A stretch of 64,000 bases of DNA from Schmidtea polychroa (GCA_044892525.1 CM097885.1:215884001-215948000); one strand, 5' to 3'. Shown: positions 2,890 through 61,444, numbered from the stretch's first letter. Numbers and translations are program-made. Notes: generated by a model not told the origin, from the sequence alone.

Positions 2890-3792
2890 ATTTATAAAAG
2901 AACCATCAAGTTGAGATTTGAGAACCTCAACAAACTAGTAGAAAATCTACAACGAAGGATCACCGAATGCAAGGGGTGGTGCTGGGAACTCGAAGCAGTG
3001 GCGTAGCAATAGGTTGTGAAGGTTGTGCACGGCACAAGGGCCCAGGACGAAAAATTAGTAAAATTTATACGTTCGAGCATTATAAATTCCCTGATTGTCA
3101 TCAAACCAAGCATCGCTTTGGCGTTTGTTTTGTTTTTATTAAGACAGCAACCACAGTTTGGACGGTTTATAAATTTAATATTATTAGGAATCTATATTGG
3201 ATATAGTTGTAAACCACATATGTCACATTTGTTCTTTCTTTTTATCATGTGATTCAATTTTATATTATGGTGAAATAAGCGTATGATCTGAGTTTTTTCT
3301 AAGAATTATGTTTCAATAAATTAGTGACAATAACAACAATTATTGTTCATTATATCATGATGGTACCTGGCATGTGCCCATTCTATATACAGAGAATACC
3401 GAGAAGTAACAAAATATCCTTTCAACCCAACCCGAAACGCTACTATTTCTGTTTTAAAATGCGCAAATTTACTCAGAGAGTTGCTAATCACCTTCCCCCA
3501 AGCCTGCCTATGGTTTGGTTCCTCGGATCACTTCGTTCGACAAATATTTTGTGCGTCCCAAAATCTGCACAAGGGCCCCAGAAATCCTTGGTACGCCACT
3601 GACTCGAAGGCACCTGGTTTAGCCCTTAGGAGTGCAGAAGCGCTTGAAGCTGATCCAACAGCTGCAACTTCAGAGCCCGCAGGACCAAATCGAAATCAAG
3701 GCCCTCCGGCTATATGTCCGGAAACTAGAGACCCAGCTCCACCAAAAGGACATCAATTAAGATTTGACAGAACGAATTCGCCCAGTTGCTAT
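2890..3792 (+). pseudogene. Degraded older copy of the LTR-borne coiled-coil gene, cut by the insertion at 3793
   Basis: LEGTWFSP at 3603-3625, then (after a frameshift) QKRLKLIQQLQLQSPQDQIEIKALRLYVRKLETQLHQKD, nearly collinear with the 23167 ORF. It ends in RIRPVA exactly at the TG of the 3793 element. Confidence 0.75.
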
Positions 3793-4379
3793 TGTTGGGC
3801 TAGAACTGATTTCTAAACCCAAAGTTAGAAAGGGGACGAAATATGTCAGTACACAAGACGCATACCCAGCATTAAGTTTACTTAAATAAAAATATATAAA
3901 AACACCAAGTAAACAATGATAACAGAGAGATAATATACCCAAAAATAAAACATCTGAATTAAAAATAAAATAAAACACGAGCAAGAAGTAGCACACGAAA
4001 ACTTACTCAAATATAACCGAAAGACATAAAACAACATAAACAAATTCGAATAAAGGCGATCAGTAAAAATTAAAAATAAAATTAAAGAAAATATCCATAA
4101 AATCTTACGTAAAAAAATTATATCAAAATTTTGTATAAAAATCCAGAATAATCCATAAAAAATTGCAAAATCCATCATGGCCGCCAAACGACCCAATAAA
4201 ATTTATAAAAAATAAATATTTTAGTTTAAAATATAAAAATTTTAGAAAAGAATTCACAAAAAATAATTTAAAAATAAGAAATAGATTAAATTTAGCATGG
4301 AATGTTCTGGAAATGCCCAAATCCATCATGGAGGTAAATTTAATAAAAATAATTCAAAAATAAAAACTAAAATTCTTAC

Positions 4380-5500
4380 GGAAAAATCGCCCTCTAAATT
4401 GATTAAAATTAAAAATCGAATGTTCTAGAATTAAAATAATTCGAATTTGTTATATTACATCAATGCACGCATGCATACTAGCACACCAAAATTAGGGTGA
4501 TAAACTAACACATTTCGTCACTTTTCAATTTTTACTCTTATGCCAAAATTTTGATTTTGATTTTTCTGAGATTGTAAGTAAGAACAATTTCATGGTGAAT
4601 TATAAATTATTATTATTTAAACCTCGTTTTCATTTTTTTCATTTAGTTACAAAAGTGTTGGAGTGAGATCGTCGGTTATCATTGATTTTGAAGCGAGATC
4701 CCACTCAATCCTAAACCTGTGCACCTTTTTCGTCGTTGGATCCAAAACCCTCGACGCTGCAGGTCCATGACCTGGCTAATATGCAAGATTGAATTGGGGT
4801 AGTTGGAGGTCGTACTGACTTCATGATATAAGCCACGGAGTTCATCGATAAATTTTCTCTGGAGCGGCGGGGCTCGATGAGCTCAATGGAACTAGGTAAT
4901 TTAGTCAAAGTTACGGTGCTTAAAAAATAAAAATTTAAAAATAAAAACAAAAATTATGGCACAAAAATTGCCATTAAAAATATCAAAATCGCGAAATAGA
5001 AAATTTTGGAATAAAAAGAATTCGAGTTTGTTTTAACGCATCACGTGTACAAAATAGGTATATATACCGACACGTTTCAGTCACAATTTAATCACTTTAT
5101 GCCAAATTTATTTTTCTGGTGAAATTCTTTGAATTATTAGTAGGAACTATTTTATTTGCCTTATAATATATTTTTTGTTGGGTTGTATATTTCATATTAT
5201 TTTTAACATTTTGTTTATTTTATTTCTTTTGAATCGTTGGATGTAAGAGTGATTAGAGTCGTACCGATTGTCTACGCCTCTGATCAGCCTTGCATTCAAC
5301 CAAGCTATAAATCTACAACAACATGCGGACATGCACTATCCTTATTATAGTTTTTTTTGTTCGGTCATCGGAGGTCGTCCACTTCATGGTTCTGCCATGG
5401 AGTTGTGTCGATAAAACCCTTCTGCTATGGCTCCAGCTATTTATTATCGGTCGACAACGGTATGTTTTGACTCCACATCACAGTAACGCTTGTCGTAGCG
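4380..5500 (+). repeat. Diverged tandem duplication of a ~550-bp module inside element A1
   Basis: GGAGGTCGT-ACTTCATG-GCCAYGGAGTT-TCGATAAA occurs at ~4806 and ~5370, and ATGCCAAA-ending blocks at ~4540 and ~5100. Copy A2 has only one such module. Confidence 0.65.
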
Positions 5501-6373
5501 GTCACAGTGGGGCCGTGTAAGCAAGCACTCTTCCCGACTTCAAATGCAGTACACAATTAAAATCAACACTAAAAATTTCACACACTACTTAACACTAGGA
5601 TCATAATTGAGTAGATCTCAGACCCAAACTGAACACATGTAGTCGGTTGAACATCATTGAACAGCTCGGTTATACCTATACGTTTGTCGAACCTCATTGA
5701 TATATATAATTCTTAATGTTAATATAAAAATTTTCTCAGAAGTAAACGCCATAATCCTCGTAAAGAAGTTCGACAAGCGAACATAATAAAATGAAAATGC
5801 TCAATTATTTTCTAAATATACAACCTTAATTCGCAAAACGGAAATCATTATTTCTGAATAACTAACAGTTCTGAAAGTAACATATATTACCCTTAAACAT
5901 AAAAATTGTTAATATGTAGGATCCCTGAATCACAAAGTACAACAAAAAATTCAAAACTATGATTTGTAAATACGTATTGTCATTAAATCATAAAATATGT
6001 CTTAATATTATATTTATAATTGTGAACTATTCATAAATCATAACTTAAAATTTTTCTTTTGAAAATTATTCTATAAATATTAAATTATAAACTATAATTT
6101 CGTATTGCACTGAAAAATCTAATTTTTGTCTTATATAAGATATAATGTATAAAAGTATTGTAATACTCAAGAACAAATATAATTTCATATTACACTTAAA
6201 TTATCATCTATGAATATTAAATTATAAAATACATCTCAGTATTACCCTTAAAAAATAAGGTGTTATGGTATAGTAGTATTAAATGATAACTTTATTAAAA
6301 TATGGAATACATCTTTAGAAGTATAATGTACAAATGTACCATCGTTCGGAATTATAGGAGAATTTTATAATTT

Positions 6374-6780
6374 ACATAAATGCCTAAATTAGGAATTAAA
6401 AGTTTTATACTAAAAATACCAATTATAATTTATAATTTTATACTACCTCAATGTATAATTTATTTATCACGCATAAATGCCTAAATTGGAAATTAAAAAT
6501 TTTGTATTAAGAATATAAACTCTAAATCCTAACTTTATATTACCCCAACGTATAATTCATAAGTTTCTAGACTGATTGTAATACATAAATGCCTAAATTA
6601 GAAATTAAAAGTTTTATATTAAAAATACAAATTATAATTTATAATTTTATACTACCTCAATGCATAATTTATTTATAATACATAAATGCCTAAATTAGGA
6701 ATTAACAATTTCATATCAGGAATATAAAATATAAACTATAACCTTATATTGCCTCAACGTGTAGTTTATAAATACCTAGA
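6374..6780 (+). repeat. Four ~100-110 bp tandem units in alternating A/B order (a ~210-bp dimer twice)
   Basis: CATAAATGCCTAAATT recurs at ~6374, 6472, 6583 and 6680. Units 1 and 3 share TATACTACCTCAATG; units 2 and 4 share TATATT-CC-CAACG. Confidence 0.85.
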
Positions 6781-8039
6781 TTATCAGGTAGAATTATACC
6801 CTTCACTTCAATTAGTAATTTAGCCTAAGCGATAATTTGGTTAATATGTGACTTATAAAGGCCCAAAGCATCACTGTAATTGATATATTACCTAAATGTA
6901 CAAATCCAGAAAAGCCTAGATCATAAACTATAAATTATATTTTCCCTAAATTCTGAACTATAAACTATAATTTTATAATTTATATATAAAAGCTATAAAC
7001 TATAATGTTACATTTTGTAAATAACCTATAATTATAAACCGTAAATTTTTGCACTTTGCTGGGATGTATGACTTATAGACATCTACATCTTAAACTATGA
7101 TTTCATATTCCATATAGTTATCTAATTGGCAAAGGACCAAATTCTAAATCCTAAGTTTATATTTCGTATATAACTGATAAATGACGAATGTATAAAATGT
7201 AAAGTTGCGCATGCGAAAATAGCTAGGTTATAAATAACCCATGCGCCAAAATTATGGAGTATAATGACAAACATAAAGAAGCGCGCCCAACCTTTAGATT
7301 GGAAACCGCAGCGGCATGAAGCTTGACGATAATTTAATTGAAACTAATTTAACCTCCAGTCGAAAGAGAAGATAATATTTAACATTTATTTAATCACATC
7401 GAAGTTCTAGTGGGCTGAGTCAGGATTGCCGAGAGAAGTTCATTGTAGATTTGAGTCTTGCGTGCTCCAGCTATTGCCGCTCGTTGCTGGGAATTGCCAA
7501 TCAGATTGGCAGCAGTGGATGAATTCCTGAACTTACGAATTTACTAATTTGGAATTTACAGTCTAACTTACTTCGAAGGATCCAGATGGATTGCAACACA
7601 GAGGTGTTGGGTCTGAAAGTCTAATATACCAGAATAAACTAAATTTATCAGAAAAAGTTTTTGATATTTAAAAGCATTACAATTAAATGTATTTAAAATT
7701 TAATATTCAAAACCATTGTAGTTTACTTTAAATTTGACCTTAAAATTTTAATCATAATTATTACAGTAAAACACCGTAAAATAGGCTGAGGACATTAATT
7801 AAGGTAGTTAATTGTTTATCCCCGGTTAAGTTTAATTTAAAGTACAGCATAAATTTGAGTTTGTCATTCAAGTGTAATTTAATTTAACCCAATTAGAATT
7901 AAGAATATTTGGAGTTTGATTTACGTTTTAAAGAATTTCCCTTTGTGCAGTCGTATATTTGACTGAGAGCAGTCGAATAGGAATAAACATTTTCTTTTGA
8001 ATTGTGTCAACCTTATTGACTATTATTACCCAATTAGAT

Positions 8040-8404
8040 ATGTCACACTCGGAAATTTTTAGCGATGAGGAAGCCGATAGACAGCTGATCACGCGGCTCC
8101 GGACCCGGTACATCTGGTACCGAATTCATGATTGGAACCGGGGGTTGGACCTAGATAATTATGGACCGGTCATCCGAAGTGGCCCAGAGCCCGATGCCCG
8201 GCGTGGGTGAAAGCAGAGCCCACTAACAATTTGCTACGAGAAGCCCGCGATCGAGCGGCTATCGAGGTAGAAGCTGCCCAGATGCGGCTGAAGAGAATCG
8301 AGCTCCAGCTCAGAGCCGAGGCAGAGGGAGTAAACCTCGAAGAGCTGGAAGAGACAGATGCCCCTCCACGAAAACGAGGGAGGCCCCGTAAGAACCCTGC
8401 CTAA
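8040..8404 (+). CDS. Small LTR-borne ORF with WYRIHDW motif, coiled coil and C-terminal AT-hook (one probable frameshift near 8172)
   Basis: ORFs 8004-8210 and 8207-8404 join if 1 nt is restored (the homologue at 22684 reads GTG ATC CCG AAG where this copy has GTC ATC CGA AG). The C-terminus PRKRGRPRK is a canonical AT-hook. Confidence 0.65.
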
Positions 8405-8699
8405 CTCGTCGGCAGTGGTAACTTGACCAAAACTATTTGACTAATCTGATCTAATGATATTGTGTTGCGTTTGACTTCATTAGTAGCTAGTATGACAAAT
8501 TGTAGAAATTTTTTTTTATTATAATTTTTATATTATAGTTTGTCGTGTGTCTTCATCATATAATAAATTATCTTTCTGTTATTACATTTAAGCCTTATAG
8601 CTTATGGGGTGTCTTCAGGGTTGAGGTGACCCTCCCTATCTTTCATCTATTAATTTTATGCAATTAATCGAATCACCTTTACGCTCATGAAAGCTGGCT

Positions 8700-9167
8700 A
8701 TGGAATTTTATTATTGTCTTCATTCAGTGTACAAATTACTCGAAAATCTACGCAAGGACCGCGAACAGGCCCAGCAACAAGTCGAAGACCTTCGAAGTCG
8801 GGTCGAGAAGCTCAAAGTCAAGTGCCGAGAACTCGAAGGTACTTGGTTCAGTCCGGCTGAGATGAAGAAACGAACAACACACATCTCACAACTCCAGACC
8901 CAGGCGGAGCAGAATCAACTCGAAATCCGAACACTGAAGATACAAGTGCACTCGCTCGAGAGCAAACTGAAAGAAAGGTTCATCCAGGACACTCTCCGAG
9001 AGCAGATTCGCCCACTTCCCGTGGAGCTGGCCAAGATATACCCACCAGCCCAGGCAAGCAAGCCGAAACGCAAACGGCTAGGGCGGAATACACGAGAAAA
9101 ATTGAAAAGGGCCTGGCTGGCCGAGCAAGCAAAAGCGAAAGAGCCTGAAGCCACTCCACAATCCTGA
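8700..9167 (+). CDS. LEGTWFSP coiled-coil protein, subtype A, open frame
   Basis: 155-aa ORF with heptad-rich KLLENLRKDREQAQQQ...LEGTWFSPAEMKKR...QLQTQ and a basic tail KPKRKRLGR. An AG acceptor near 8727 suggests an upstream exon; AATAAA at ~9228. Confidence 0.75.
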   Translation: MEFYYCLHSVYKLLENLRKDREQAQQQVEDLRSRVEKLKVKCRELEGTWFSPAEMKKRTTHISQLQTQAEQNQLEIRTLKIQVHSLESKLKERFIQDTLREQIRPLPVELAKIYPPAQASKPKRKRLGRNTREKLKRAWLAEQAKAKEPEATPQS

Positions 9168-9344
9168 GGAATGTTTGAGAGTGCGACCCCTCCTGGGTAA
9201 AACAGACATTGTAATAGTGTAGTGTTTAAATAAATGATTTTCATTGTCTGATGGATAGGTGATTAAACTTTATGATTGTCCAGAACAAGACGGTCGACAG
9301 AAAAGCGTTTGGGAAAACAATCTCGATAAGGGACCGAAATAAAT

Positions 9345-9550
9345 CGGACACATGCCTTCTATCGGCCGTCCGTGAACCCATAGAGTACTCGACAATTACA
9401 GTGCCTTGGCGCGCTCACTTTTTGCGAGTACTCAACCCCTTGGTACAGTACCAACGTTGATTACTCAACGGGTACCAAGCGGAAAATAACGTTGTATTCT
9501 GGGTTACGCTGGTAACAGCACTTAAACATTCAACCACCAGTAACCCACCA
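9345..9550 (+). ncRNA. Structured RNA/cis element at the 3' end of element A1 (four helices)
   Basis: Helices CGGAC/GTCCG, GAGTACTCG/CGAGTACTC, CTTGGTAC/GTACCAAG and GGGTTAC/GTAACCC with a GCTG-GTAA-CAGC hairpin. Compensatory changes are seen in copies at 23732-23949 and 15270-15530. Confidence 0.7.
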
Positions 9551-9570
9551 GTATTCTGAAAACGGCAACA

Positions 9571-10990: not shown

Positions 10991-11145
10991 ATAATAGAAT
11001 GACGCATGAAATAACGAAAAATGCAATAAATAATCAGGAAATTAATAAAACAAATAAAAAATATAATAAAAATAAAGAAAATTAAGGAAAATAACCAAAA
11101 AACAGGAAAAAGTAAACTAAATTAGAAAATAAGCGGTACTCAATT

Positions 11146-11281
11146 CTGATTGGTCTGCATAAACGAAAAATTCATATATAAGCAGACAGTAAACTTATTA
11201 TGGTTACTGTTAAAACTAAAAATTCACAGGTAGGAAAATGATAAAAATTCTCTACTGTTAAAACTAAAAATTCACAGGTAC
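11146..11281 (+). promoter_or_regulatory. Pol II promoter-like module: inverted CCAAT box, TATA box, 28-bp direct repeats
   Basis: CTGATTGGTC (11146), TATATAAGC (11175), then TACTGTTAAAACTAAAAATTCACAGGTA twice. The same arrangement occurs on the minus strand at 23980-24108. Confidence 0.6.
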
Positions 11282-14160
11282 TCAACCATCAAGACACCAG
11301 GACAAAATCAGACTATTAGGAAGCAGAAGATATTCAGAGACAATTCCAGATTTAAAGTCATAGCCATTAATTTAACTTTTCGACTCAGCCTTTGGAATCA
11401 CTAGTTCAAGATAGTTGGTAAGAGCGTGTTTTAGTTTTATAGATTGTATTAATGGATAATAATGTTAGAATATTTATTATATTAAATTAAAAGGTTTTAA
11501 TACGATTTTCTTCATTTGATCTCCTCTCAATAATACTGAATAGTAATGTTTAAATTTAAACATGAATGATAACTAAATATTTGTAATGTACAATTATATT
11601 TTGAATTTTTATTTTATTATAAATTTACAATGAGGAACGTGGAGTTGAGAAGATCCATACCATGGTGTGAGGAGCCTTCGGGAGCTCAGCCGATGGGTGT
11701 GGACCTTTTCAATCACGCAGCTGACGTGGGCCGTAATGTGGGGGCTTCCTCACGGGTCCGTCGCTGAAGGTCAGAAAATGCTGCAACGAACTGTCGAGAG
11801 TGAGGTGGAAGGTAATTCGAATTCTAGAAGGTGGGAATAATCGTAATTTGACAAGTGACTGAGGTGGCTACAAACTTTCTTCCTACTAGAGATCCATAAT
11901 TCTCAGACGCTACACTTTGAAACTGCTCGTTTGTCACCTTAAGAAATCTAAGTCGTTCACCAATATCGACAACTTCACCATCATCTATCCACAAATCACT
12001 TTTACGTCAAAATTTAGTCCACTTTGGTCTTAGATAATGGATTAGCTATTAAGATACTTACTCTTGCATCTTACGACAGCATAGTAAATATGAAAGAAAA
12101 ATTATTAACTGTATTTAATTAATGAGACAAAAATTTCGTAAAATTCCTTTATTTTCCTTTTTTAAATAATTTTGAATTGCCATTGGCTGGAACATGAAAG
12201 ATCATTTGCTTGAATCCACCCCCGATAAATTGTCGCCTTTGCATAGTTCGATAGAACCATCCATAAAGTGATACATTCCAACATGAGAAACGAGAGAGGT
12301 TGCATACCATACCAAAAAAATCCAATTTCCAAGGTTGATGAGAATAAACATGAGGCAGCATAATGGCTGAATAACCTAACTCCAAACATCAGAATAATCC
12401 ATGTTTTAGTGACAGAGACAGATATGAGCATACACCGTCCAAACGTGCGTAATCGGGTCATGGATAGACAGCAAATCTAGATAACGTAATAACGCTCATG
12501 ACAAATCACATATAGCAATACACACTGGAACCTACGCATGCCTCGTTTCACGTCTGTTAGTACACCTAACCGCGAAATATAACATTATCTATAATCTAAA
12601 AAAAAAATCAATAAATATATATTATAGGAACACACAAACTTACCTGTGTGTAGAAATTTAATGCCGCGAAATTTAACATATTTATTATAGGAATCTAAAA
12701 AGTGAGAGAAAATAATTAAGCATACAAGCACAGCACACATAATGAAAAATACATACAAAATTAAGTAAAGTGTTTTTCATGCGAAATTCAGATTGATTAA
12801 CATATAATTAACATATCAATATTTTAAAATTATTTAAAAAATTATGTACAAAAAAACTTTTGAATCAGATTCCGACTGCTCTACGTTGAGCTTTAGGGAA
12901 AAAGAAGTAAATACATCGTAAGATTTAATTATAAAATAATTTAGAATATAAAATTTCTTTAGATTTACAGATATTGAAGAAGATCCTTCGACATCTTTGA
13001 ATTTGCAGGAAAAACATCGCAAATCGTAAATTTTAATAAATTATTTTAACAAATTAATATTTTCATAGAATTACAGAAATAGACAAAATTCGAAAGAAGA
13101 TTACAAAAACTTAAAAAATATTTTATCCATTCTTTACTAAATGTCTTTAAAAAATAAATGTTTAGTGATTACTTTACATATTTATAATTATAAAAATATC
13201 TAACTTACATTTTTACGAAATAAATCCAAATAAATCCAAATAAATCCAAATAAAATACCATAAAATTCCTAAAAAACACCTGAAATTTAATTATCAATGT
13301 TATATATTATCAATATTATAAATGCTGACTAACAGTAATATTTAAGAACTTGAATAATGATCTCATAATTATATAAAATCAAAATTCAAGTCCTAAAAAT
13401 TACTTCAATGCAAAAACTTACCTTTAAACGATTTTTGGAAAATTAAATAAATGAAATTAAGTTAGCATTGTCATATAATTGGTGACTCACCTCAGGTGGT
13501 GTGCACACCAACTTATATTATAGACAATGTTAACTTTCGCGGTTAGGTGTATCATCCTCTATTCGACACTGCAGTAGACGAACTCGCTGGTTGATAACTG
13601 TAGTGAGAAAATTAATTCTGGTGCATGCACCTGGCGATTCCGAATTTTCTAATCAGATTGCTGATAGCTAAGCCGGCAGAGATATCAATGCAGCTGATGG
13701 TCTATAAGATAGATCCACATACATCAAGCACGAATTTTAGATTTCTCAACATGAATCCTGATGAATTTTAACTAAGATCAGTTAGATTGCGCTAGTGATT
13801 AGCCTTGTGTAATATATAATGCTGAACAGTAAAATAAAGGATTATAGTTTTCAGTAATTTCAATTTATTAAACTAATTTGTTAGTTTTGCTCATTCTCAA
13901 ATGCGACGGATATTCCTGAGGAAAATTAGAACACTACCACAATCATATAACCATAAGATTTGTTTTCAGCGACGAGTTATCACATCAAGTTAAGGGGACG
14001 TCATATATGACCAACCAGTCTTATAAGTAAATGATGTACAGATGGTTATCGTACACTGGGGAATTCCTACGGCCGCCGACCTATTTGGTAGCTAAACTCA
14101 TGAATGTAAAGTAAGAGAATTGTGGTGACTGATAAATGGTTATGCCGAACGTACGGCTGA

Positions 14161-14961
14161 ATGGATTTAGTCGAATTATGTTTACCTTTATTTTTCTTTA
14201 CAGTCACCAATATGTTACCACGCACGAAATCGCCCCTCAAACCCTGCTTCTCCTGTGCAGACAAAAACGTCGTAATCAAAGATTTACAGACCCAGATCGG
14301 TCGATACAAAAAGAGAATCGACGATCTGGAAGGTACATGGTTTAGCCCAGTACAAATGAAAGAGGTACAGAAGAAGCTGTACCGTAGTGAGCATTGCCGT
14401 GATGTCCTGATCAATGAAAGCAGATCCCAACGCAGTTTGATAAAAGAGCAGTCAGAGGCTCTTCATAAAGTTTATTTACAGGCGGCTACCACCCGGAAGA
14501 TCGTGAGTATCCCTATTAGTGAAGCGGACAATATCTTTCCCGTCCACCATGTCCCTTCGTTCAGTTCACCGCCTTCATCCAAGAAGACTTGTCGTGAGTG
14601 CGTGGAAGCCGACCTCTCTCTCAGGCCATCTAATATGCCTATTACCGGAACTAGTAAGGTGTTACCATCGTCTACGACCACCTCTGTAGCGTCATCGAAT
14701 ACTATGATCATCTCGAAACCCAAGCGTCGCCAACTGTCGAGGGAGGAACGCAAAAAGAAGCAACGTGAACGGGCAGTTGCTAAACAAAATAAACCAGCTT
14801 CGGACAACACAACTACTCTCGACGATCCCCCGGTAACGATCGATCTGACAGTAGGGATCCCAGGGCGAATCATCTCTGCCGCTGGTGTGACTTGGGAGGA
14901 AAATGCCTCCGAGTTCTTCGATTTAGACGAATTGCTGGCTGACACGGAATGGGAGAAATGA
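14161..14961 (+). CDS. LEGTWFSP coiled-coil protein, subtype B (CxxC N-terminus, Ser/Thr/Pro-rich and basic region, acidic tail)
   Basis: 266-aa ORF. The likely true start is the ATG at 14212 just after a ttacag acceptor. Motifs KPCFSCADKN, LEGTWFSPVQMK, KPKRRQLSREERKKKQR and FFDLDELLADTEWEK. Confidence 0.75.
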   Translation: MDLVELCLPLFFFTVTNMLPRTKSPLKPCFSCADKNVVIKDLQTQIGRYKKRIDDLEGTWFSPVQMKEVQKKLYRSEHCRDVLINESRSQRSLIKEQSEALHKVYLQAATTRKIVSIPISEADNIFPVHHVPSFSSPPSSKKTCRECVEADLSLRPSNMPITGTSKVLPSSTTTSVASSNTMIISKPKRRQLSREERKKKQRERAVAKQNKPASDNTTTLDDPPVTIDLTVGIPGRIISAAGVTWEENASEFFDLDELLADTEWEK

Positions 14962-15269
14962 AAGTCTCGCCGTGGAATAATCTTGCTGTGTGTGAATTGT
15001 CGAACTGAACCCCCTCTACCTTATCTCTTCCTTTGTCTGTTATCTACCAAATGGCGCGTGTTGTATATAATTTATCTGTATATTGTATTATGGTGAGAGA
15101 ATAAATCCAATGTTTGATTGTCAATTTTGTTTTTGAATCAATTATTTCTTTCGGTAAGAAGCTCGGTGTAGATTTTATGAATAGAGTAAACGTTTTTGGA
15201 AGTCCAACAAGTAATAGTCGATTAGCATCCAATTCAAAGAAATGCGGGGTTTGATGATGCGGTCAGGCG

Positions 15270-15530
15270 TAAGTCCTTCCATCGGCAGTCAGGGAAAGGA
15301 AGTCGAGGCCTCAGTAAGGAGTAGTCCTAAGGCAGGGGCTCACCTACTTACTGGCGTCTCGCCGACACAGTACAGTTCCAACGTGAAGAAATTCGCGGGT
15401 GCTGTGTTGAAGTATAGGTTGTGCGGGGTTCTGCTCAGGGTTGAGGTCATATCTAACGTAAATGAAATGGACACCCATCTCCTAGGCGAAAGTGCGAAAT
15501 AGTTGGAATCAACCGAGCACTACCCCAGCA
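15270..15530 (+). ncRNA. Third, highly diverged copy of the structured 3' module
   Basis: CCTTCCATCGGCAGTC loop motif; CAGTAAG/CTTACTG enclosing GCTCAC; ACACAGTAC/GTGCTGTGT enclosing AGTTCCAAC plus a GAAA hairpin; GGGGT..TGCTC/GAGCA..ACCCC at the terminus. Confidence 0.6.
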
Positions 15531-18500
15531 AGATTATTTAAATATATTTATTTATTTTAAAACAAAATTATTGATTTGGGAATTCCCCTATCTCTAAATT
15601 TTGCTTCAACGGCTCTAGACTCCAATAAAATTACAGAAAAACACTAAAATCTATTTTTAGTAAAAATACACCCTTACTTCAACGAGGGAATGTCGATATA
15701 AAATTATAGAACAAAACGAACTCCTATAGTACCGACCAATCACCATCGTCGGCATGATTACGCTGGATAAGTTGTATACCCCCCCCCCCTTTCAATATCA
15801 AAAGGAAACAGAACAATAGTCACTAATTTAAGCCCCTCCCTTTTCTGGATCTGCTTCTCTCACGATGATATCACCTTCCTTTTTCTACAAACCTTATTAG
15901 TCATATTATTAAACCTGAGTAAAATGAGTGATTGGGCTGTAGGAATAAAAAAAACCCTTGAATGGACATAATCTTGCATGATCGACGGTAAATCAAACAC
16001 AGGATAAACAGCACATAAATAAACTTTTAAAAACCATAAATTGGAAAAATTCAAAGTCAAATACAAATCTTTATTGGCACCGCAGGAGTTGACTACTTTT
16101 TGCTCAGCTCGTTGAGTTTGGGGTGGAAAGATCATCAGATTTGATCATTACTGCAAGGACAGGCTGCCTGGAATCACCTACTACGCTTATACTCACCTGC
16201 AAAACGAAAATAATCAATATGAAACATATGAAACATACTTTCACATATAAGATTAACGACGTCAATGAGAGGGTGACCTCCTTCTTCTTTTGGGGGTGGT
16301 TTGTAGAACAAACCAGACACTTAATATCAGAATTTGCGATCACCATTTATTAACAATCGTGCCAATTTTTTTTGCTAGAACCATTAAACTGCCGCTAATC
16401 ATAGTAGCATGAATCCGAAAGATCATAATAATTCCCCTTCTGTTTAGTGGAACCCTGTAAAATTTTGGTTCATAGTCTGCATCTAAAACTGAATTAATGA
16501 AATTTTTCTATTTATTTTATTTATATAATATAAATGATTTAATAATATATTACACCAAACACCACTGAGAACCATTTCCTATAGTATAACAAAAAAAATC
16601 AATAATCTTACATTATAGAAACATACATACTTACTTTGATTTCACGTTGATGTTCTCATTTATAGCTCAATGAGATACATCTTATATTATAGAAATCTGA
16701 AAAGTGTAAGAAAGATTAAAAACTGAACACAAACGCTACACATATTAAAAAACACATACAAACCTTTGATTCGTAGAAATGTAACGATGAGATACGTTTC
16801 TATAATAATTCTATTTTAGACAATTTTTAGAAAAAAAGATCGTTGAAAATTTTTAAAATTATATTTTAATGATGTAATACACTAGAATTAATACCGGCAA
16901 CGCGTGTAGTTATGGTTATTTTCGTCATGGCAATTCTGACTTCAGATTTTGGATCTGTACATCTGGCAATTATTTTCGGATTTATCTGTCGGAGCGATAA
17001 ATCTTCCTCATTTACAGTTACACTACCTAATCCATATTAGAGAGTATTGGCCTTCTAACTGCTGGATTTTCTTACTGGAATTGTTTACCGGTTTCTAGTC
17101 GTGATAAAATCATCAAATGCCAAGGTACGACATCGATTAATATCAGAAGTGGTGTGTGTGAGGTATCGTTGATATTCGTGTAATGACGGCTTATCGTATC
17201 CTAGACAGTAAATATTTATGATTTGTTTACTAGGAAATCAGATTTTTTGACAGACAAGACAATATCTACGGAGACTGTCTGGATTGATCGGTCGAATTTT
17301 CCATCGATTAAACGAAAATTATCTGATGTGGGAAATTCCCGTGGACTTTGCCTTATCAAGATAAATCGATTTGCTGGAACAAAGTAAGTCGACGCTACTT
17401 TTATACGTGACGAATTTAAAGGTGCTCCTCTTTTGCAGGACTATTGAAGTGAAAGGTGGTCTGCTGATGACGCTGTGAATATACAACTACGGGTTTCCTG
17501 ACGATGGCGAGTAGAGAAGGCGAAGCTTCGCTCCTGGCGATTAACGATAATTGAACTTGATGGAATTATGATTATCATCATGGAATTTCACCTAAATCTC
17601 TCATCCGATCACGACTAAATGAGGACCTCTGGGTTCTCACCTCCCTCTTACTATTCCGACTCGGAGTTTATCCGCTCCCCACGACACACCCGAGGATCAT
17701 AGGTATTGCTACCCACCATCCTCGCATCATCATAAGGGACAGATCAACTCAAATGAATATGACAAAAATTGGAAATATCAAAAAAAAAATTTCATACCAC
17801 AAATGATCGATCAACACAATTAAATATAAATAAATTACCTGGCAACCATGCCATTTGGATTTTCAATCATGATACCCTTGGCCAACTTCCCATCCATCCA
17901 TCAAACCAAACATAATTATTTCATATTCAAGTCCGGCGAGAGTTCTAACTCCTGTTACGTTCGATAACCGCCAACACCACCCAATCATCGTTTTCATACT
18001 CTCGGTTGCTAAACATTCTCCGCAACATTGTGATTGTCATTCATTCCATGTTTCTATTCTTCATTGGATCTTTCCCATGTCTTCCAAATAATGTTGGCAT
18101 TCCTCGGTATCACGATTGAACTCCCAGAAATAAGTCCTTGGTATATAAAATATAAAAATTTATTAAATTAAATATTCAAATTTCTACTATATATCTTCGT
18201 TATATCAAATAAATCTACCATGACAAATAATTACAAATCATACCCAAAGTCTCGAAATCGATTTAGTAGAGCTGAATTGGCTATGAGTTATTTCGTAATA
18301 TTCCCGTAATCGTTTGGATTTCCAAAAACAAATCTTTTCTTCGTAATTGATTCTGATGAACAGGTAGTTATTTCTTTTAGTTATTTCTTTCTAGTCGAGT
18401 GAGTTTACAGTGTCGTGATATCAGTTGTTGGGCTAGAACTGATTTCTAGACCCAAACTTCTAATTGTGACTGAAATGTGTAGGTACACAACACGCAAAAA

Positions 18501-21500
18501 GCAAAAAGTATAGTTAAATATTAAAAAAAAATATAAATAAACAATAATAATTAAAAGAGAAACAACAAAAAATGTAAACACAGAAATTAAATAAAATTAT
18601 ACAAAAGCAAGAAGTTATGCAAAATCTAACTCAAAAATAACCAAATAAACATAGAGTTACAAAAAACAAACTCGAATAACTTAAAAGACGGTAAAAACAG
18701 TAAGAAATTCCAGAAAAACCCAGAACATTCCATAAAAATGGCGATGACCATCATAAAAGCTACCTTGAACAATGAAAGTTAGAAAAATAAATAAATTAGT
18801 ATTAAAAATAAAAAAATCTTAAAAAGAAATTCATAAAACATCAGTTAAAATAAAAATTAAATTAAAAGTAATATGGAATGTTCTGGAACCGTTCCAAATC
18901 CATCATGGACGTGAAATTAACGAAAAATAATTAAAAAATAAAAATTTAAAAATAAAAATTATGACGCAAAAATCGCCATTAAAAATATCAAAATTACAAA
19001 ATAGAAAATTCTGGAATAAAAAGAATTCGAGTTTGTTTTAATGCATCAATACATACACGTGTACAAAATAGGTATATATACCGACGCATTTTAGTCACAA
19101 TTTAATCTTTTTGTATGCCAAAAATTTTCATCGAAAATTCAAGTGAAACCAAAAGTAAGGACCGTTGATTATATTATTTTAATTGACATTGTGTTATTAT
19201 GTCCATTATATTAATTAATTTTTGTCTTTTTGTCACATTTTATTTTGCTATTATGTAACAAAAGTGACCAGCGTCGTCGTGAACGGGTTGTATCCACGAC
19301 GCTGATCAGCCTTGTTTCTAACTAACTGCATAAATTCGGGTCTACGACCCTACATGCATAAAAATTTCAATTTTTTTTTAACCGGAGGTCGCCACGAACA
19401 AATGGTTTCTAACCAGGAGTAGGGCGGGTAAATCCATCCCGGTAGTTGGCATAGTCATAGGGACTATGCGGACGAAATAAAATTTGGGATAGTAATCGCG
19501 GGAAACATAGTACAATAAGGCCTATCGTACCGTATTCAGTTGAGTCGGGAAAGTAGGAAAATTTTAATTAATTGACTTTTCGGTAAATGACATATCCAAA
19601 ATAAACACTCAACTATTCTATAGGAAATATATCACTAGGAATACCTAAACGGGAAATATCCCAGACTTAAATTATCACAAAAGTTCTCAAGTTGTCGGTT
19701 AATTGCACCAAATTATTCAAATGTTTAATACTTTGGATATCGAATATTATTAATATACTCTAATTGGTATTACCTGTAATTATATTTAATCAGAAATTTA
19801 ATAATCAAGAACCCGAATCTAGTGTAATTACCCAGTTTATGATACCTTAATTTTGACGAAATTGATTCCCTTAAAAGTACTTTGAATGAGTACTCTACAA
19901 TGTAGCTTCATAAAAATATTGATATCATGAAAGCCCTTTTATCTCTGGTAAACAAAATTCTTCAATTTTTCTAAAATGAAAATCTCTATCATATTGTATA
20001 GTACCTTATCGATCATGTCGTAGAAGAATCTGAAACTGTTATGCTTTTAAATCATCTCTTAATGAATATGAAAAGATTGAGTCCAAACCCACCCACGATT
20101 TTACATATTAATGTCTAGACTATTGGGTCAATGAATACAAATTTTTTAGGCTAGATTGTCGAAAATATATTTTATAAAGTTATTGGTGCCTATATTATTT
20201 GATAATGATTTTAAATCTATACGAACCAAACTTGTGCTTCATATAATTATAAATTAACATTGATATTATGTAGTTAGCATATTTCGAATCGATATTATTT
20301 AAAAATGTATTTCAGGAATTTATGTCTATACCAATTGTTAACCTTGTATTAGATAAAAGATTTTCTACATATACCTACTAATATCAACATCATCTGATTA
20401 TTTTAGAAATGTATATATTAGTTGATTAAAAAGAATCTGCCCCATCCAAAGGACGTTCTATAAATGTATACCCGGGTGGCCATATTGTTTAGTTAATAGA
20501 GATTAATTATTAAACCATACCATCTAGAATTAGGTTATAGGAATTTATATATTAACATCTATATTAATTTGACTAATTATAAAATGACTTCTTGAATTAT
20601 TTCATGAAAATTTTATGTTTACTTGCATATATCTATATTAAAGTCAAGCTTATATAAAAACTTCGAAATTTTTATGCCATAACATGCCGTACCTTCTCAA
20701 ATTAATATTTGACTATCCTGTAAATATATTCAACTTATATTATTTCTATGAAATAAATTTAGAGAATTTTTCTCAATTGACCCCCTTCAAACCATGTGGT
20801 CATTACTAGTTACTCACAGATTCTAGTTTAGCTTGTTTTTTTAAATATATTGTATTTCATGTTAAAGAGAAATTTTTTTTTATAATTTTCACCAATGACC
20901 CCCCCTTCTCCCGGTTCATACCGTCGTTAATGACTGCCTAGTCATGCTAATTTGGGTTATATTCAGAAAAATCACTCATAATTCATTTCATAATAATTTC
21001 ACCATTTTTATGATTGACCCCAGGCTCTAATCTTTATAATTATAAATCTACATTAACATTTAATCCTCATTTAATACTATTTAGATTTTATTCATGAATA
21101 ATTAACACAATTAAATTTATTTAATAAAGAAAATTGGATCACAGGATATTACAGAGAACTCAATTAATTTCTTCCTATTTTTATCCCTTAATGACATCAT
21201 CGATCTAACATCCCCTTCTACCCTACTTATTAACTATATAACTTACTCCAACCAATTTATCGATTTCTTAAAACGTTACTATTAATAGAAAATTTCAAAA
21301 CCGATATTATCGATTTCCTTTTCCTCATAGTAAAATTTGACCAATAACACCGCTTCTATTAACAACCCTGCAAATCCCGGGTTACCCTCATCGAACCGAC
21401 TCTAGTTGACCGAATGGACGACACATACTCTCTCGCAAACGAGCCAATCGCTATCGACCATGTCAGTAGGAACTCCAACCCTCCTAGAAAACTTATCTCA

Positions 21501-22683
21501 CTCGTGCGCATTCAACCCCTGTCCCAGAAGTAGATCCAAAGTATGTCGGAAAAGGCAAAGGACCTTTCCCCAGGTTTGACGGCCCAACCTAAGATAGGTA
21601 CCCACATGATCATGGACGAGGGATAATAAGCAACAAAATGTATTATACTTCAAAGCGTTAGTTACTTAAATTCAAATGAAATGAGGGTAGAATCACTTAA
21701 TAATTATTACTAGTTAATTAAATTCAACAGAAACTAAACCATTATATTCAACCAAAATTATAAACCTGATTGGAAAAATTCAGTCCAGCCACTGTACAAG
21801 TCTTACCGAGGAGAGCAGAGCCTCTCTAAAAACTCCCCTCGGGTTCAAATTATTAACCTAAATTTCCCCTGCATGTACAAACATAGATCCAAAATATTGA
21901 GATAATTGCAAATTTCCAACTGGATACCGGACAAATTAAGTAGTAAGTTCTGGATTCCCATCAGACAGCCGAAGTTTTTGAAAAATTGTCCAAACAAATT
22001 TTGTGATTAGTTAAAATTCACGAGGAATATATTTCTGAAATTAAACGAATTTAGAAATCTGAAGATTAATTACCCATCCCATTGAAATGACGATGAAGCT
22101 GCTTACAACCCCCACGGATGAGAATTGCTAGGGGCCGAATATACTATTGGCACGTAGTAATATCCCTCCCGTGGTGGATCCTAGCAGCATAGTTTTCCTT
22201 TTGTAATGATTTTTTTTTAAATAAATTATTTTTAAATAATGGTTAAACATTACATCAACAATTTAATATTTTTGACTCAGTTAAACAACAGTAAATTGAG
22301 AATAAAAAATTAAAGATAGAAATTTTGTAGTTCATTTACTAATTTTAATTTATCAACTCTTAACGTATCAAATCTAAACTTAGTAGTACTTAAATTACAT
22401 ATATATGAATTTAGCTAAGTTAACAATTATATATGGTCAAATTCTTAAACTGCTAATTATCGAATAAATCCCCTTGAGTTCATTCGAAGAGTCAAATCGG
22501 GTAACTGATTCGCAACTTAAACCCATCTTAATCACAAAGGGCATTGTCTGTTGACTTGATGTGTGTTACATTTGAGGTTGGAATATAATATTACGTATGA
22601 ACGTCCCTGGTTAATACGAACCCAAATGGGTGAACGAAGGTCAGTTATGAAATATTTTAATATTTCTCTTCATCATTACAATC

Positions 22684-22947
22684 ATGTCCAACACCGAACC
22701 AAGGAGCGTACAGGAAGATCACTCGGCAACCGACTCAAGCCTCGGAATTACCTGCAAGGAGGCAGACGAAGCCGTTCGATTGAGGTAGGACGCAGAACTC
22801 GCCCGGCTAAGGTCTAGATGGATCTGGTATAAGATCCATGGTTGGACCTACCAGAACGTAGTACCGGTGATCCCGAAGGTGGAACTGTACATCAATTATA
22901 CCTCATTGGCTTTGAGCGACGCATTCGACGATGCGTGTATTGATTGA
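22684..22947 (+). pseudogene. Homologue of the 8040 ORF (WYKIHGW motif), one in-frame stop
   Basis: MSNTEP...RLR*DAELARLRSRWIWYKIHGWTYQNVVPVIPKV aligns with LITRLRTRYIWYRIHDW...PVI. Confidence 0.7.
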
Positions 22948-23166
22948 TTTTTGATAATGTTCTGTAGCGTTGACTATTATTACTATTGACTATAATTTTC
23001 CTTAACGTTGACAGTCCCATAAGGTTTGGTATGATTCATAGAACTCGGTTTAGGTGCGCGTAGAGGAGGGCTGCGACGAGGAGATCACATTCATTTAGTA
23101 TTGATGCTCATAATAATGCTCGACACTCGATGCTGACGTGAAAATTACTAATGTTGTCTTGTTTTA

Positions 23167-23649
23167 GTGCTAAAACTCCTGGAAGAGATGCGAGCAGATA
23201 GAGAGCGGGCGCAGCAACAGGCAGAGGAATACCGGGCCAAACTAGCACGAGTCAAGGCCCATTGCCGGAATTTCGAATGTACCTGGTTCCCGCCAGCAGA
23301 AATGAAAAAACGGATGAAGCTGATCACTCAACTGCAACTCCAGAGTGCACAGGATCAGGTTGAGTTACGGGCCCTCCGCCTGAAAGTGAAGGAGCTAGAG
23401 ATCAAGGTACACCAACAGGACCTTGATCGAGAGGTCATTTCCAAGATCCGACCCATGAGTGAGCTACTCCACATACCGAAGGAGTGCACCCCACCAATAA
23501 TTCCGAGGAAGAAGATCCGGCCGGGTAAAGCGGCGCGGGCGAGAATAAGACAAGCCAGCCAGGCCCAATTAACGCTTCATTCTGCTGGGTCAGAGTCTAC
23601 TCCGAAAGAATCGACTAGGACACTATATATTCTGATCATGTTTTCCTAA
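23167..23649 (+). CDS. LEGTWFSP-family coiled-coil protein, subtype A, open frame
   Basis: 160-aa ORF with FECTWFPPAEMKKR, QLQLQSAQDQVELRALRLKVKELE and a basic tail PRKKIRPGK. AATAAA overlaps the stop codon. Confidence 0.75.
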   Translation: MLKLLEEMRADRERAQQQAEEYRAKLARVKAHCRNFECTWFPPAEMKKRMKLITQLQLQSAQDQVELRALRLKVKELEIKVHQQDLDREVISKIRPMSELLHIPKECTPPIIPRKKIRPGKAARARIRQASQAQLTLHSAGSESTPKESTRTLYILIMFS

Positions 23650-23731
23650 TAAATTTTTACTGGTACGTCCATATCTGGGCATTTTGATTTTTCCCATAAC
23701 GTTAACTGTCGCAACGGGGACGAAAAGAAAC

Positions 23732-23949
23732 CGGACATAGGCCTTCTATCGGCAGTCCGTGAACCCCAGTGGGTGCTAGACAATTATAGTATGTTAAAAA
23801 TGCTCACTTTTTGCTAGTACCCAAACCCTTGATACAGTACCAACGTTGATTGCTCAACGGGTATCAAGTGGTCAGCTATAAATTGTATTCTGGGTTACGC
23901 TGGAAACAGCATGAGGAGGTAGAGATTTCGCGGTACCTGTAACCCACCA
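23732..23949 (+). ncRNA. Structured 3' module of element A2
   Basis: GGGTGCTAG/CTAGTACCC, CTTGATAC/GTATCAAG, GGGTTAC/GTAACCC and GCTG-GAAA-CAGC; paired positions co-vary relative to copy A1. Confidence 0.7.
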
Positions 23950-24826
23950 CAGTATTGAGTCTGTGGATATTCCTGTGGTGATCTGTAGTGATTTTTGCAG
24001 AGTGGTCAAATGATTATGAACTAAAAAATTTTTACCTGTAGTGATTTTTGCAGAATGGTAATTAAATGAATTGTGAGTTTGCTTATATATTAATTTTGGT
24101 CCAATCAGGACGGAGTTGTGGTGATTTTTAATTAATTATTGTTTTAATAAATTTTATTTATCATTGCTTTATTATTATTGTTATTTTATTGTTTTATTAC
24201 AGATTTATATTTTCTATATTTTTTTTCGTAGATTTTCATTGTCTCTTATAGGTGTAGTAGTTTGTTTTAATTCTTCGTACAAGTTTTGTTAAAAATTTAT
24301 TTATTTTAAGTTTGGATTTGGTTTTTTCGTTTCATTTTCCTAAATTTGATTTTATTACATTATTTTCCCCTTTTGTTAGTTACACGTAGTTAATACCCTA
24401 TTTCCTATAACTATTTTTATTTCCAATGATTTTTAAATTTCAATTGTTTTGTTTTTCTTTTATTGTTTATTTCGGTTTCCCCTGATGAATTTTTCTTTAA
24501 TTTATAGTTATTTTGATTTAATTCGGCTAGGGTTTCCTTTACTTGTCTATTTTACTTTTACTTGGGTTTTTTTCTCATACCCGATTCAGCTCCATCTTGT
24601 ATTGCAACTTCGAGGTTTAGCCCAACGGCATTATGGTCATTATCCATCTTATTAGTACGCGAATTATAGTCAGTAGGGTCACTATCATCATCACTGATCT
24701 TGGTTAACTCCTCCTGTAATCACCTTCCTATATAAATTTTTCTTCTCGCAAGGAAATTGTTATTTCTGACTATTTGAAATGGGCTATTACTTTTCTTTCA
24801 GCCTCATTTTTATATTTATAGCAAAC

Positions 24827-25217
24827 ATGGCCCATAAAAGTAATTATATAAAACCCTGCTTCTCGTGTTCAGACAAGAACATGGTCATACGAACACAACA
24901 AGAAGAAATCGCACTGTTAAAGAAGAAGCTCGATCTTCTGGAGGGCACCTGATTCATCCTCGTCCAGAATGAATCCAACCAGAAAGCGGTGAAATTGGAG
25001 CCCTGCTGTAACAATCTCCTCGAAGAAAATCAACCCCAACGTACCTAGATACGGGAGCAGTCCCAGGCTCTGTTTCATGCGTACACCAAGAACTAGCTCG
25101 AGGCTCGGATCACGAGGCTGCCTTAGGCCGAAAAATGTCAAATCACTTTTTCACCCGTCTATCGCCAACATTACTAATACGGTAAAACAAATCAAAATAT
25201 TCCAGATAAACCCAACA
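24827..25217 (+). pseudogene. Degenerate subtype-B LEGTWF gene followed by family terminus AAACCCAACA
   Basis: MAHKSNYIKPCFSCSDKNMVI...LDLLEGT*F...IREQSQALFHAY aligns with the 14212 ORF; terminal motif at 25208-25217. Confidence 0.75.
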
Positions 25218-29960: not shown

Positions 29961-30627
29961 AAATCTTAGAATTTTAATATCGGGAATATTAATATGAGCT
30001 ATAGTAAAAAAAATTACAAAAAATAAAATAAATTTATTCGATTGTTGATTAATAATATAAAAAAAATTAAACTTATGAATGTTATTAGTGTGAACAGTGT
30101 TGTTGTTTGTTTTCCTTGTTATATCTGGATTTATTGTTGTTAATTGGATGTGCTGTTACCTTACAACTACTTCCCCTTAAGTTTCTGCCGGGTCCTTGAA
30201 TGATTTTAGAACGTCTTACGTCCACGTATTTGAATTTCTTTTAGGACGGAAAATCTAAACCTGAAGAAGAACAGTTTTCTGCCAATAACCATGTGTCTAC
30301 TCCTTTTATTTTTCTCTAACAACAAAAAAGAAATTCTCAAGATGAAAAATAAATAACAAAGAAATTTTATTGTATTAGTACTATAACGTTAAATTCAGAA
30401 AATATAAGTCAGATCACGCGTAGGTACAATATCTGCCAACAGGGAATCCATATTAACTCGTCCTATGATGCTTGCAATAAAAGGCTTCTCCACAGTCAGG
30501 TCTGGAGTATCGATAGAGTCGTGAAGCTGTATGAAGGCGGAGTTTTATTTCCGTCTTACAAAGATTTTGCCTCTTCGGCTTGAGAACTACTGACACTGGG
30601 GTAGACGTGCTTAAATCAATGAGTGTA

Positions 30628-31600
30628 TGTTGGGTTTAACCGGGGTTAGAACATGAGAAGAAGTCGCCAACGATGAACATCCGACACAAGATGTTGGGAG
30701 TGAGAGTTACGACTGGAACCAAATCGTTTTGCTCGACAGCCATGAATCCAGGTATGTGAGTCACGAGCTCGCGAGCTGTTTAGACATGATACAGAGCTTG
30801 AGATTTCTCTTATACCAAGGCGCTTGGGCTCTGCGTTCCGTGATCACGACATTGCTCCAGGCGATGTACTCTTTTTTGGCTCTTCACATGGATGGGAGTG
30901 AACCAAGTTCCTTCAAGACGATCAATTTTTGCTCTTGGCAGTCGACTTTTTTATCTCAGGCGAGTATTCATTGCATTCTTCTCAACTTTAGAGCATTGGA
31001 TTTGTTTGCCATTATGTCTGCAAAATAAAGGAAGAAAGGAATCAAATTAATATGATTGGATTTTTTGATGCAGTTGTCAGATATATCTTATCACATTTAT
31101 CGGGATGTTGAACTCGACGCCTTTCGGGAGGGGTATCTGAGTTAACTGATGATTATCTGGGGTTAATACTAATATGTTTTTTTCGCGTATGATATTTCCT
31201 ACATTAGGCATTATTAGTGTTTACAAAATATGTAACCATACAAAATAAATTATATACTAAATTTAGTAATTGTATTGGTCTTACAAAATGGAAAATTCGT
31301 TGAAGTTCGTCCGTCGAGAAATCATGAAGGGGGTACTCCCCAAAAATTGCTGTCTTCCGCCTCCGCCATTCTATACTCCATATTTTCTATGTTCTATATG
31401 GTTTTTTACTATACTAAAACTAATAACTACCTTACCACAACTTTTCCAATCAAACTTGATCGAACAAATCCCAAATCCAATGTCTCTTGATAATGTGAAC
31501 CGTTTGTGTCTTCAATTTTTATTTGTTGCAAATCAACCACCTGATAAAGGTACTATTATTTTGGACTATTAATTTTTAACCTATCCTCCATCTAGAATAT
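30628..31600 (-). mobile_element. Minus-strand remnant of the giant LTR-like family with a degenerate LEGTWFTP gene (~30760-31012)
   Basis: Minus strand reads MANKSNALK...KIDRLEGTWFTPIHVKSQKRVHRLEQCRD...EKSQALYHV and ends TTAAACCCAACA at 30628. The 5' limit is uncertain. Confidence 0.7.
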
Positions 31601-32722: not shown

Positions 32723-36345
<3,623 letters not shown>

Positions 36346-38143: not shown

Positions 38144-38144
38144 A

Positions 38145-61400: not shown

Positions 61401-61444
61401 ATTTCTCTATTAATTACTCCTTCATCTGAAGTTACTTCTACATG

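Follow-up and report, generated by a model that had tools for sequence, protein, structure and literature searches.

A 5.5-kb unit with exact ends in Schmidtea polychroa, probably the gene-bearing solo long terminal repeat of a giant Gypsy element

Complex retroviruses have accessory genes that are encoded in the long terminal repeat (LTR) or expressed by splicing, among them sag and rem of mouse mammary tumor virus (MMTV), nef and rev of human immunodeficiency virus, and rex of human T-cell leukemia virus (HTLV). Here we analyze a unit from a planarian that may follow a similar design. This unit, element A, is located within a 64,000-nt stretch of Schmidtea polychroa DNA (GCA_044892525.1 CM097885.1:215884001-215948000; the whole stretch is called the window below). 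Element A probably is a solo LTR left by a giant flatworm Gypsy element from the GLT-type group, and it would carry an accessory gene that is possibly Rev-like. The likeness to complex retroviruses would consist in a gene within an LTR-like unit, its splicing, an Arg-rich stretch in its product, and structured RNA near the poly(A) site. It is an analogy of design; no sequence or fold homology of the main open reading frame (ORF) to the regulators of complex retroviruses was shown.

Several other described systems resemble A in one respect or another. The LTRs of Ogre elements are 1.9–6.5 kb long, a range into which the length of A falls, and LTRs of about 2.5 kb or more follow from the total lengths of Burro elements (PMC6431247). 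The tie of A to Burro or Ogre is an analogy of size only. Further likeness to Burro, beyond the implied multi-kb LTRs, consists in a probably shared host group, in accessory ORFs, and in the remains of a Burro-like gag/env at 59600-62900 of the window, with an env of the mononegavirus type that Burro also has (PMC6431247). The Burro accessory domains (BIR, RING, MATH, BCL2, and ankyrin) sit in the interior of the element and were not found here, and LTR-borne genes are not mentioned for Burro in the available portion of that paper (PMC6431247). The extra ORFs of Ogre and Retand, plant Gypsy elements of the Tat clade, are thought to be regulatory and are likewise located in the interior and not in the LTR. 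Ginger DNA transposons are similar to A in their TG...CA ends, 4-bp target-site duplication (TSD), and size. However, they have terminal inverted repeats (TIRs) of 40–270 bp and an integrase-like transposase, and A has neither.

The main ORF family of A is likely linked to the planarian repeat GLT2, as judged from sequence. A GLT2 probe of Schmidtea mediterranea is printed in Table S1 of PMC8532177, with GLT names taken from Repbase, and GLT2 RNA appears in neurons when the PIWI protein SMEDWI-2 is lost (PMC8532177). About 400 of the 485 nt of this probe were compared by eye. On the reverse strand, the probe contains a pyrimidine tract and an AG/TG acceptor in the same phase as in A and in its relative B (see below), and the core of its open frame shares 7 of 12 residues with B and 6 of 12 with A. 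An invariant Thr codon follows the acceptor after 122 nt in GLT2 versus 113 nt in A and B. One GLT2 primer and one GLT primer (20 nt) had no match in the window at up to three mismatches, and therefore A and B would be more distant families, distinct from GLT2 at the DNA level. The GLT probe encodes, again by eye, a different short frame. The anatomy of the GLT2 element is not described in the available portions of the papers naming it (PMC8532177).

The ends of A were analyzed together with those of B, a second element in the window:
18426..23949, plus strand: element A, 5524 bp, with TG at 18426 and CA at 23949
18422..18425, no strand: left copy of the TSD, CAGT
23950..23953, no strand: right copy of the TSD, CAGT
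18426..18455: left terminus of A, TG followed by a hairpin, with 27 of 28 nt the same in B
3793..9550, plus strand: element B, a collinear sister family, 5758 bp, 15 kb from A

The initial annotation had taken the TG...CA ends, an imperfect inverted repeat of about 11 bp, and the CAGT duplication as signs of an integrase-mediated insertion. All three marks were recovered (ATATCAGT/TGTTGGG ... CCCACCA/CAGTATTG, with slashes at the junctions); in the inverted repeat, 8 of 11 positions agree, and nothing longer is present within the first 40 nt. However, the marks are not diagnostic alone, because many other pairs in the window satisfy all three: among all TG..CA pairs 0.3–8 kb apart (n = 1,491,169), a perfect 4-bp duplication accompanies 10,327, and an inverted match of at least 8/11 is additionally present in 209 of these. 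The boundaries of A nevertheless hold because the collinear relative B has both of the same termini. Inside the ends, the two elements are nearly identical on the left, as listed, and identical at 11 of 11 nt on the right, whereas identity drops to 6/20 and 7/20 just outside the left and right ends, respectively. Once the ends are set by homology, the chance of a 4/4 duplication is 0.3–0.65%, and among the CAs 0.3–8 kb from 18426, that at 23949 alone precedes CAGT. Some residual doubt comes from the sequence CAGTATT, which is found across or beside the right junction of both A and B, offset by 2 nt, and from the imperfect TSD of B (see below). Element A is thus confirmed as a genuine insertion with exact ends, at the boundaries that had been proposed initially. 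Element B, four more copies of the main ORF family, the splice acceptors, the covarying RNA block, and the likely tie to GLT2 had escaped the initial annotation. Ogre and Retand have 5-bp TSDs.

In self-comparison, the left end of A was not found repeated directly at its right end, and therefore A is one LTR-sized unit and not a two-LTR element. The two-LTR non-autonomous elements, terminal-repeat retrotransposons in miniature (TRIM) and large retrotransposon derivatives (LARD), were ruled out on this ground. The flanks of A (18128-18379 and 24028-24245) are weakly and collinearly similar to 11008-11517 in reverse orientation, a hint that another LTR-like repeat may have been the landing site of A; when each flank was aligned to 10900-11900, the alignments were collinear, with scores of 93 versus 92 and 52 versus 60 for shuffled sequences, that is, not above the shuffles.

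Between their ends, A and B have five internal modules that are collinear as well, and the homology stops at the same bases. The identity amounts to 68% over the first 700 nt, 85% in the TATA block, and 81% in the last block, and the main ORFs share 40% of their amino acids. The parts of A and B are as follows:
18426..19070, plus strand: A-rich block of A, 53% A, 68% identical to B 3793-4552
18931..19122, plus strand: best-conserved promoter block, 85% identical to B 4920-5106, with TATATATA at 19073-19080
19255..19444, plus strand: leader-like region, with a hairpin at 19260-19310 that has a counterpart in B, and a donor-like G/GTAAAT at 19428
19450..22600: variable middle, 30% GC, not alignable with the middle of B
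22684..22947, plus strand: small ORF of A, interrupted by an in-frame TAG at 22786
23168..23649, plus strand: main coding exon of A, with an acceptor before 23168 and the first ATG at 23188
23648..23653, plus strand: poly(A) signal AATAAA, aligned with AATAAA at 9229 in B
23717..23949, plus strand: structured terminal block of A, 81% identical to B, a hairpin series with compensatory changes
8041..8403, plus strand: small ORF of B, with a frameshift near 8205, ending in an AT-hook-like RKRGRPRK
8728..9167, plus strand: main coding exon of B, with an acceptor at a position and phase homologous to A
9330..9550, plus strand: structured terminal block of B, z −3.6

The order in A is promoter, poly(A) signal, and U5-like block, with gag-pol absent, each signal being assigned its putative function from sequence. 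The A-rich block would represent the 3'-unique region (U3) or an enhancer, the leader-like region exon 1, the variable middle an intron or a variable part of U3, and the terminal block the 5'-unique region (U5). The donor-like site at 19428 is located near the point where the homology between A and B fades; the middles of about 3 kb aligned with a score of 82 versus a shuffled maximum of 97. The small ORFs of A and B have the motif RLR.R.IWY.IH.W in common, and that of B matched Pfam AT_hook with E 0.078, which is below the cut-off. Upstream of the poly(A) signal, A has a TATATA at 23624 that B lacks; in two of the three copies, TATATA precedes AATAAA by 24 and 36 nt, compared with a window background of 12/321.

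No enzyme was found in A, in agreement with the initial annotation, which had seen small ORFs only: the longest stop-to-stop frame comprises 165 aa, three frames have at least 60 aa, and no Pfam domain was credible (the main ORF had no match below E 0.15, and the small-ORF piece had none at E 0.1). A tblastx comparison of A and B with the decayed gag, pol, env, and transposase sequences of the window yielded nothing below E 0.16; this result is weak, as the positive control failed too (best E 0.15).

The main ORF belongs to a family with six copies in the window (3604-3790, 8728-9167, 14212-14961, 23168-23649, 24822-25132, and 30543-31017, the last on the minus strand). In addition to the exons of A and B, these are:
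14204..15480, plus strand: third, more distant relative, with an acceptor at 14204, an ORF open to 14961, AATAAA at 15100, and a hairpin block at 15262-15450; its left end was not found in the window
3604..3790, plus strand: broken fragment of the main ORF family, abutting the left end of B
24822..25132, plus strand: decayed copy with stops, acceptor present
30543..31017, minus strand: decayed copy with stops, acceptor present

A splice acceptor, defined as YAG preceded immediately by 14 nt with 10 or more pyrimidines, is found before all five ORF copies that have an intact 5' side, compared with a background of 2.5% per 10 nt; this definition was chosen after the sites had been seen, and because the copies fall into two related groups, the five acceptors are not five independent events. 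A frameshift that had been considered before the ORF of A, relative to the protein P0001 (see below), was dropped, as the respective stretch is the pyrimidine tract of the acceptor. Of 101 codons compared between A and B, 57, 73, and 36 are identical at positions 1, 2, and 3, respectively, and the proportions of synonymous (pS) and nonsynonymous (pN) differences are 0.80 and 0.35, respectively. The codon-position bias and the excess of pS over pN therefore indicate purifying selection on the main ORF protein.

The exon of A encodes a coiled coil, TW..P, a second coiled coil, a Pro-rich linker, and a basic Arg/Lys stretch. An AlphaFold model (predicted local distance difference test 76, predicted template modeling score 0.35) contains two long helices, with the invariant TW..P forming the hinge between them, followed by the linker and a basic helix. 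The model had no match among viral folds at E 0.001; a sequence search of the PDB returned coiled-coil noise alone (best E 0.049), and the ESM Atlas returned generic coiled coils with low recognition. An exact look-up of nine window proteins in a protein collection found none of them. A homolog search with the ORF of A yielded one match among 38 candidates, P0001, with 83% identity, and a profile search of 1.84 billion proteins yielded 17 matches, P0001 and 16 remote ones. Of the latter, 15 could be aligned over the core, without exception retaining [TS]W..P. A host domain is present in 13 of the 15 remote matches scanned, a different one in each of the 13, and we infer that automatic gene models have taken up the exon of a dispersed repeat in these cases. 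In prokaryotic genomes, none of 74 pattern matches was confirmed as a relative. An Arg-rich stretch follows the core in 12 fetched sequences and is shortened in one. Elsewhere in the window, 2863-2994 contains a short coiled-coil-like frame that ends in CKGWCWELE and is weakly similar to the ORF of B (E 0.33), possibly another repeat-borne ORF.

The terminal block is conserved in structure. One hairpin series, with 40 pairs in common, is formed both by A 23725-23915 (z −3.5) and by B 9338-9524 (z −3.8). In a covariation test on these two sequences, with the same substitutions placed randomly and uniformly as the null model, five doubly compensated pairs were observed versus 0.6–1.0 expected (P 0.0002–0.0007), and 0–8 broken pairs were observed versus 12–18 expected. 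A third version, at 15262-15450, follows the ORF at 14212 and its AATAAA; it has a local score of 39 versus a shuffled maximum of 30–31 and folds on the plus strand only (−63 versus −42 kcal/mol), with a z-score (−1.2) that is not significant. In both A and B, the last stem has 7 bp and is followed by ACCA exactly at the end of the element, which we take to be the geometry of a tRNA acceptor arm. A terminal hairpin is found directly after TG(T/G)TGGG at both ends. For 23600-24000, an Rfam search with E up to 5 returned a chance miRNA match of 14.8 bits alone and no ribozyme, and ARAGORN detected no tRNA gene in the 64-kb window. A retrozyme or another known structured RNA was rejected, as the terminal block has no Rfam ribozyme or tRNA match.

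Under the solo-LTR interpretation, a retroviral-type integrase would have inserted a full-length element, producing the 4-bp CAGT duplication, and recombination between its LTRs would have removed gag-pol, leaving a single LTR of 5.5 kb. The plus-strand gene within the LTR, visible in its anatomy and presumed in its expression, would comprise the TATA box, a leader, a probably intronic middle, the small ORF, the acceptor-led exon, and AATAAA. As the covariation shows, the last 230 nt fold into a conserved series of hairpins. Because this series lies past the poly(A) signal, only RNA running on toward the interior would carry it, which would suit a U5 leader or a packaging or priming signal. 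More speculatively, the protein could be a dimeric nuclear RNA-binding regulator that works like Rev or Rex or like an LTR-encoded transactivator.

The initial annotation had described A as solo-LTR-like. This remains the best fit to the ends, the TSD, the promoter, the poly(A) signal, and the terminal block, but it is unproven, with no paired copy in the window, and several observations weigh against it. For the three relatives, neither a second LTR nor an adjoining interior is present in the window, and no primer-binding site (PBS) or polypurine tract (PPT) was seen beside either end of A or B. If transcription started at the TATA box at 19073, the repeat region (R) and U5 would together measure about 4.85 kb, far more than R regions are known to reach. 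A second start near 23624 could rescue the interpretation, with everything upstream becoming a gene-bearing U3, as is known in MMTV; the evidence for such a start is the TATATA in two of the three copies. The strand signals conflict, as the left hairpin of B (−10.4 on the minus versus −8.1 on the plus strand, with a G-U pair gained on the minus strand) and the leader hairpin of A (z −6.5 versus −2.6) fold better on the minus strand. The TSD, which had been expected to recur across copies, is perfect in A (4/4) and imperfect in B (CTAT/GTAT, 3/4, with a chance of 7%), and the flanks of B are unrelated to each other: to the left lies a fragment of the ORF family, to the right a small Gypsy LTR end. 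None of the 15 remote proteins scanned contains a gag, reverse transcriptase, integrase, or transposase domain, and no longer forms were found among 7999 scored (alignment A1), which is weak evidence. The Rev likeness is a guess drawn from composition and from a match to Pfam REV (E 0.0013, below the cut-off) in 1 of the 15 scanned proteins.

Part of this evidence would be accommodated if the 5.5-kb unit were the whole element, an enzyme-less and LTR-less satellite with its own regulatory gene, the short att-like ends of which are processed in trans by an integrase or a transposase. We consider this unlikely, although it would explain why three relatives within 25 kb have neither an adjoining interior nor a second LTR, why no PBS or PPT was seen, and why no protein match is tied to pol. 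The terminal hairpins directly after TG(T/G)TGGG at both ends and the selection on the ORF, which persists across families saturated at synonymous sites, also speak for it. However, an RNA route could not rebuild both ends without a direct repeat, as is established for LTR biology, and a DNA route leaves the plus-strand-biased, covarying block with its G-U pairs unexplained. Furthermore, the known integrase-type DNA transposons have TIRs of 40–270 bp or 100–150 bp. The lack of LTR pairs is weak evidence here because the window contains four N gaps, which are typical of assemblies that collapse paired LTRs. In its most far-reaching form, likewise unlikely, the satellite reading is that planarians harbor a class of enzyme-less gene cassettes, single 5.5-kb units with integrase-type ends, a spliced Rev-like gene under selection, and a tRNA-acceptor-like RNA end, mobilized in trans as satellites of giant Gypsy elements. 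Should such a cassette move by itself, it would represent a novel type of element.

A variant of the solo-LTR interpretation, which appears very unlikely, reads the LTR on the minus strand (TGGTGGG...CCCAACA), so that the gene would be an antisense unit in U3, as with the antisense ORFs of Retand or HTLV. It draws on CCCAACA being the more canonical 3' end, on the palindromic TATA sequence, and on the two hairpins that fold better on the minus strand, and antisense accessory ORFs are common in Retand (PMC11963269). On the other side, neither A nor B has a minus-strand AATAAA downstream of TATA, the terminal block in its third copy folds on the plus strand only, and in the 1-kb solo LTR at 37050-38112 (see below), the A-rich part and TATA lie on one strand, the former upstream, which is also the arrangement of A on the plus strand.

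The alternative raised in the initial annotation, a Ginger-like DNA element, here a non-autonomous Ginger1/Ginger2 or GingerRoot transposon, is highly improbable. The 4-bp TSD, the TGTNR left end, and the sizes of Ginger elements, which reach 7 kb, would agree with it (PMC2836005), but the defining TIR is not there, with only 8/11 in both A and B versus 40–270 bp (PMC2836005). The right end likewise disagrees, being TGGTG in A and B (the left is TGTTG in both) and not TGTNR. In addition, the CAGT duplication differs from the CCGG/CCGT of Ginger1, no integrase-like ORF was found in A or B, although an autonomous partner could be located elsewhere, and the TSDs of GingerRoot have 6 bp. Least credible of all is a chance pairing of boundaries in a patchwork of decayed repeats, for which the 209 equivalent pairs, the unalignable 3-kb middle, and CAGTATT at both right junctions could be cited, but against which the ends and five internal modules are collinear in the independent copy B, with the homology ending at the same bases.

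If the solo-LTR interpretation of A is true, planarian giant Gypsy solo LTRs would be complete spliced and polyadenylated genes. This would explain why, in work on planarian stem cells, GLT2 reports the loss of PIWI so strongly and tissue-specifically, and why the main exon contaminates gene models (the 13 of 15 scanned matches being host chimeras). The LTR-encoded regulators of complex retroviruses would then also have a counterpart in an invertebrate Gypsy element, one for which a specific protein and RNA element can be named. No description of an LTR-borne spliced gene combined with a covarying RNA block was found in the literature searched, a search that did not extend to the Repbase reports, Grohme 2018, and Lee 2026. 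The LTR anatomy of A may thus already be on record, and A probably is a further member of a catalogued kind of element.

Element B has features of its own. It contains two successive promoter-leader modules, 4348-4920 and 4929-5460, with differing hairpins, suggesting a recombination between LTR variants; the duplicated part is:
4348-4470 and 4929-5043: duplicated promoter-leader module of B
The middle of B harbors a 97/209-nt tandem array at 6373-6780 and a further TGTTGGG start at 7605 (7605-7640), which may mark a nested LTR end. To the right of B, 9551-10800 comprises a small-LTR end (CAACA), a PBS-like TGGTGTCAG, a decayed gag in which a Cys/His knuckle can be recognized, and protease sequence (RVP E 0.035). 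The possibility that B is the 5' LTR of this gag-protease remnant was rejected, as the PBS-like TGGTGTCAG is 22 nt off, behind its own CAACA end. The inverted repeat of B also matches at 8 of 11 positions.

A similar arrangement of a PBS-like site behind its own CAACA end recurs after a solo-LTR-like element of 1063 bp on the minus strand at 37050-38112 (TGTTGAGG...CCCAACA), which has AATA on both sides. It has TGTTG...CAACA ends, an A-rich start, TATATAA at 37444, and AATAAA at 37247 and 37158; the window therefore does contain solo LTRs that have ends of this type and a 4-bp TSD. The element seemingly lies within the LTR (about 100 bp) of a small Gypsy element; the PBS-like site of the latter, together with its decayed pol (RVT_1 E 0.005), is found at 38140-40800. 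The Burro-like stretch at 59600-62900 (minus strand) encodes a gag CCHC knuckle, a coiled coil, and a mononegavirus-type fusion glycoprotein (PF24664 E 2.6e-8) and has many stops and frameshifts; a hAT-like remnant adjoins it at 62900-64000.

DNA transposons are also represented in the window. A young Tc1/mariner element at 52300-53823 has 191-nt TIRs that are 99% complementary and an open frame for a 341-aa DDE transposase (52566-53591), and a decayed hAT-like transposase was read by eye at 33720-35050. An element of 1.09 kb (28048-29138) with 43-nt TIRs and a decayed transposase-like frame is inserted in an intron of what was read by eye as a host gene of the cyclophilin-like type (about 26612-29510). 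On the minus strand, 13339-13399 matches Rfam mir-753 with 61.8 bits versus a gathering threshold of 62. This match lies inside an element of about 990 bp with 39-nt inverted repeats (12561-12599 and 13513-13551), to which a stretch at 16548-16762 is related, and the mir-753 family may derive from a miniature inverted-repeat transposable element. The family is presumably planarian, for which literature searches gave no confirmation. A tandem array of about 18 near-perfect copies of a 12-nt unit occupies 48495-48816. Judged from the window itself, a planarian host is likely, the evidence being the Burro-type env, mir-753, and an ICMT gene. This intronless ICMT gene (Pfam PF04140) at 25608-26456 has about 50% identity to named animal proteins; in a tree of 28 named proteins out of 120 listed, it groups with cestode and trematode proteins (91/96), a position that carries a long-branch warning.

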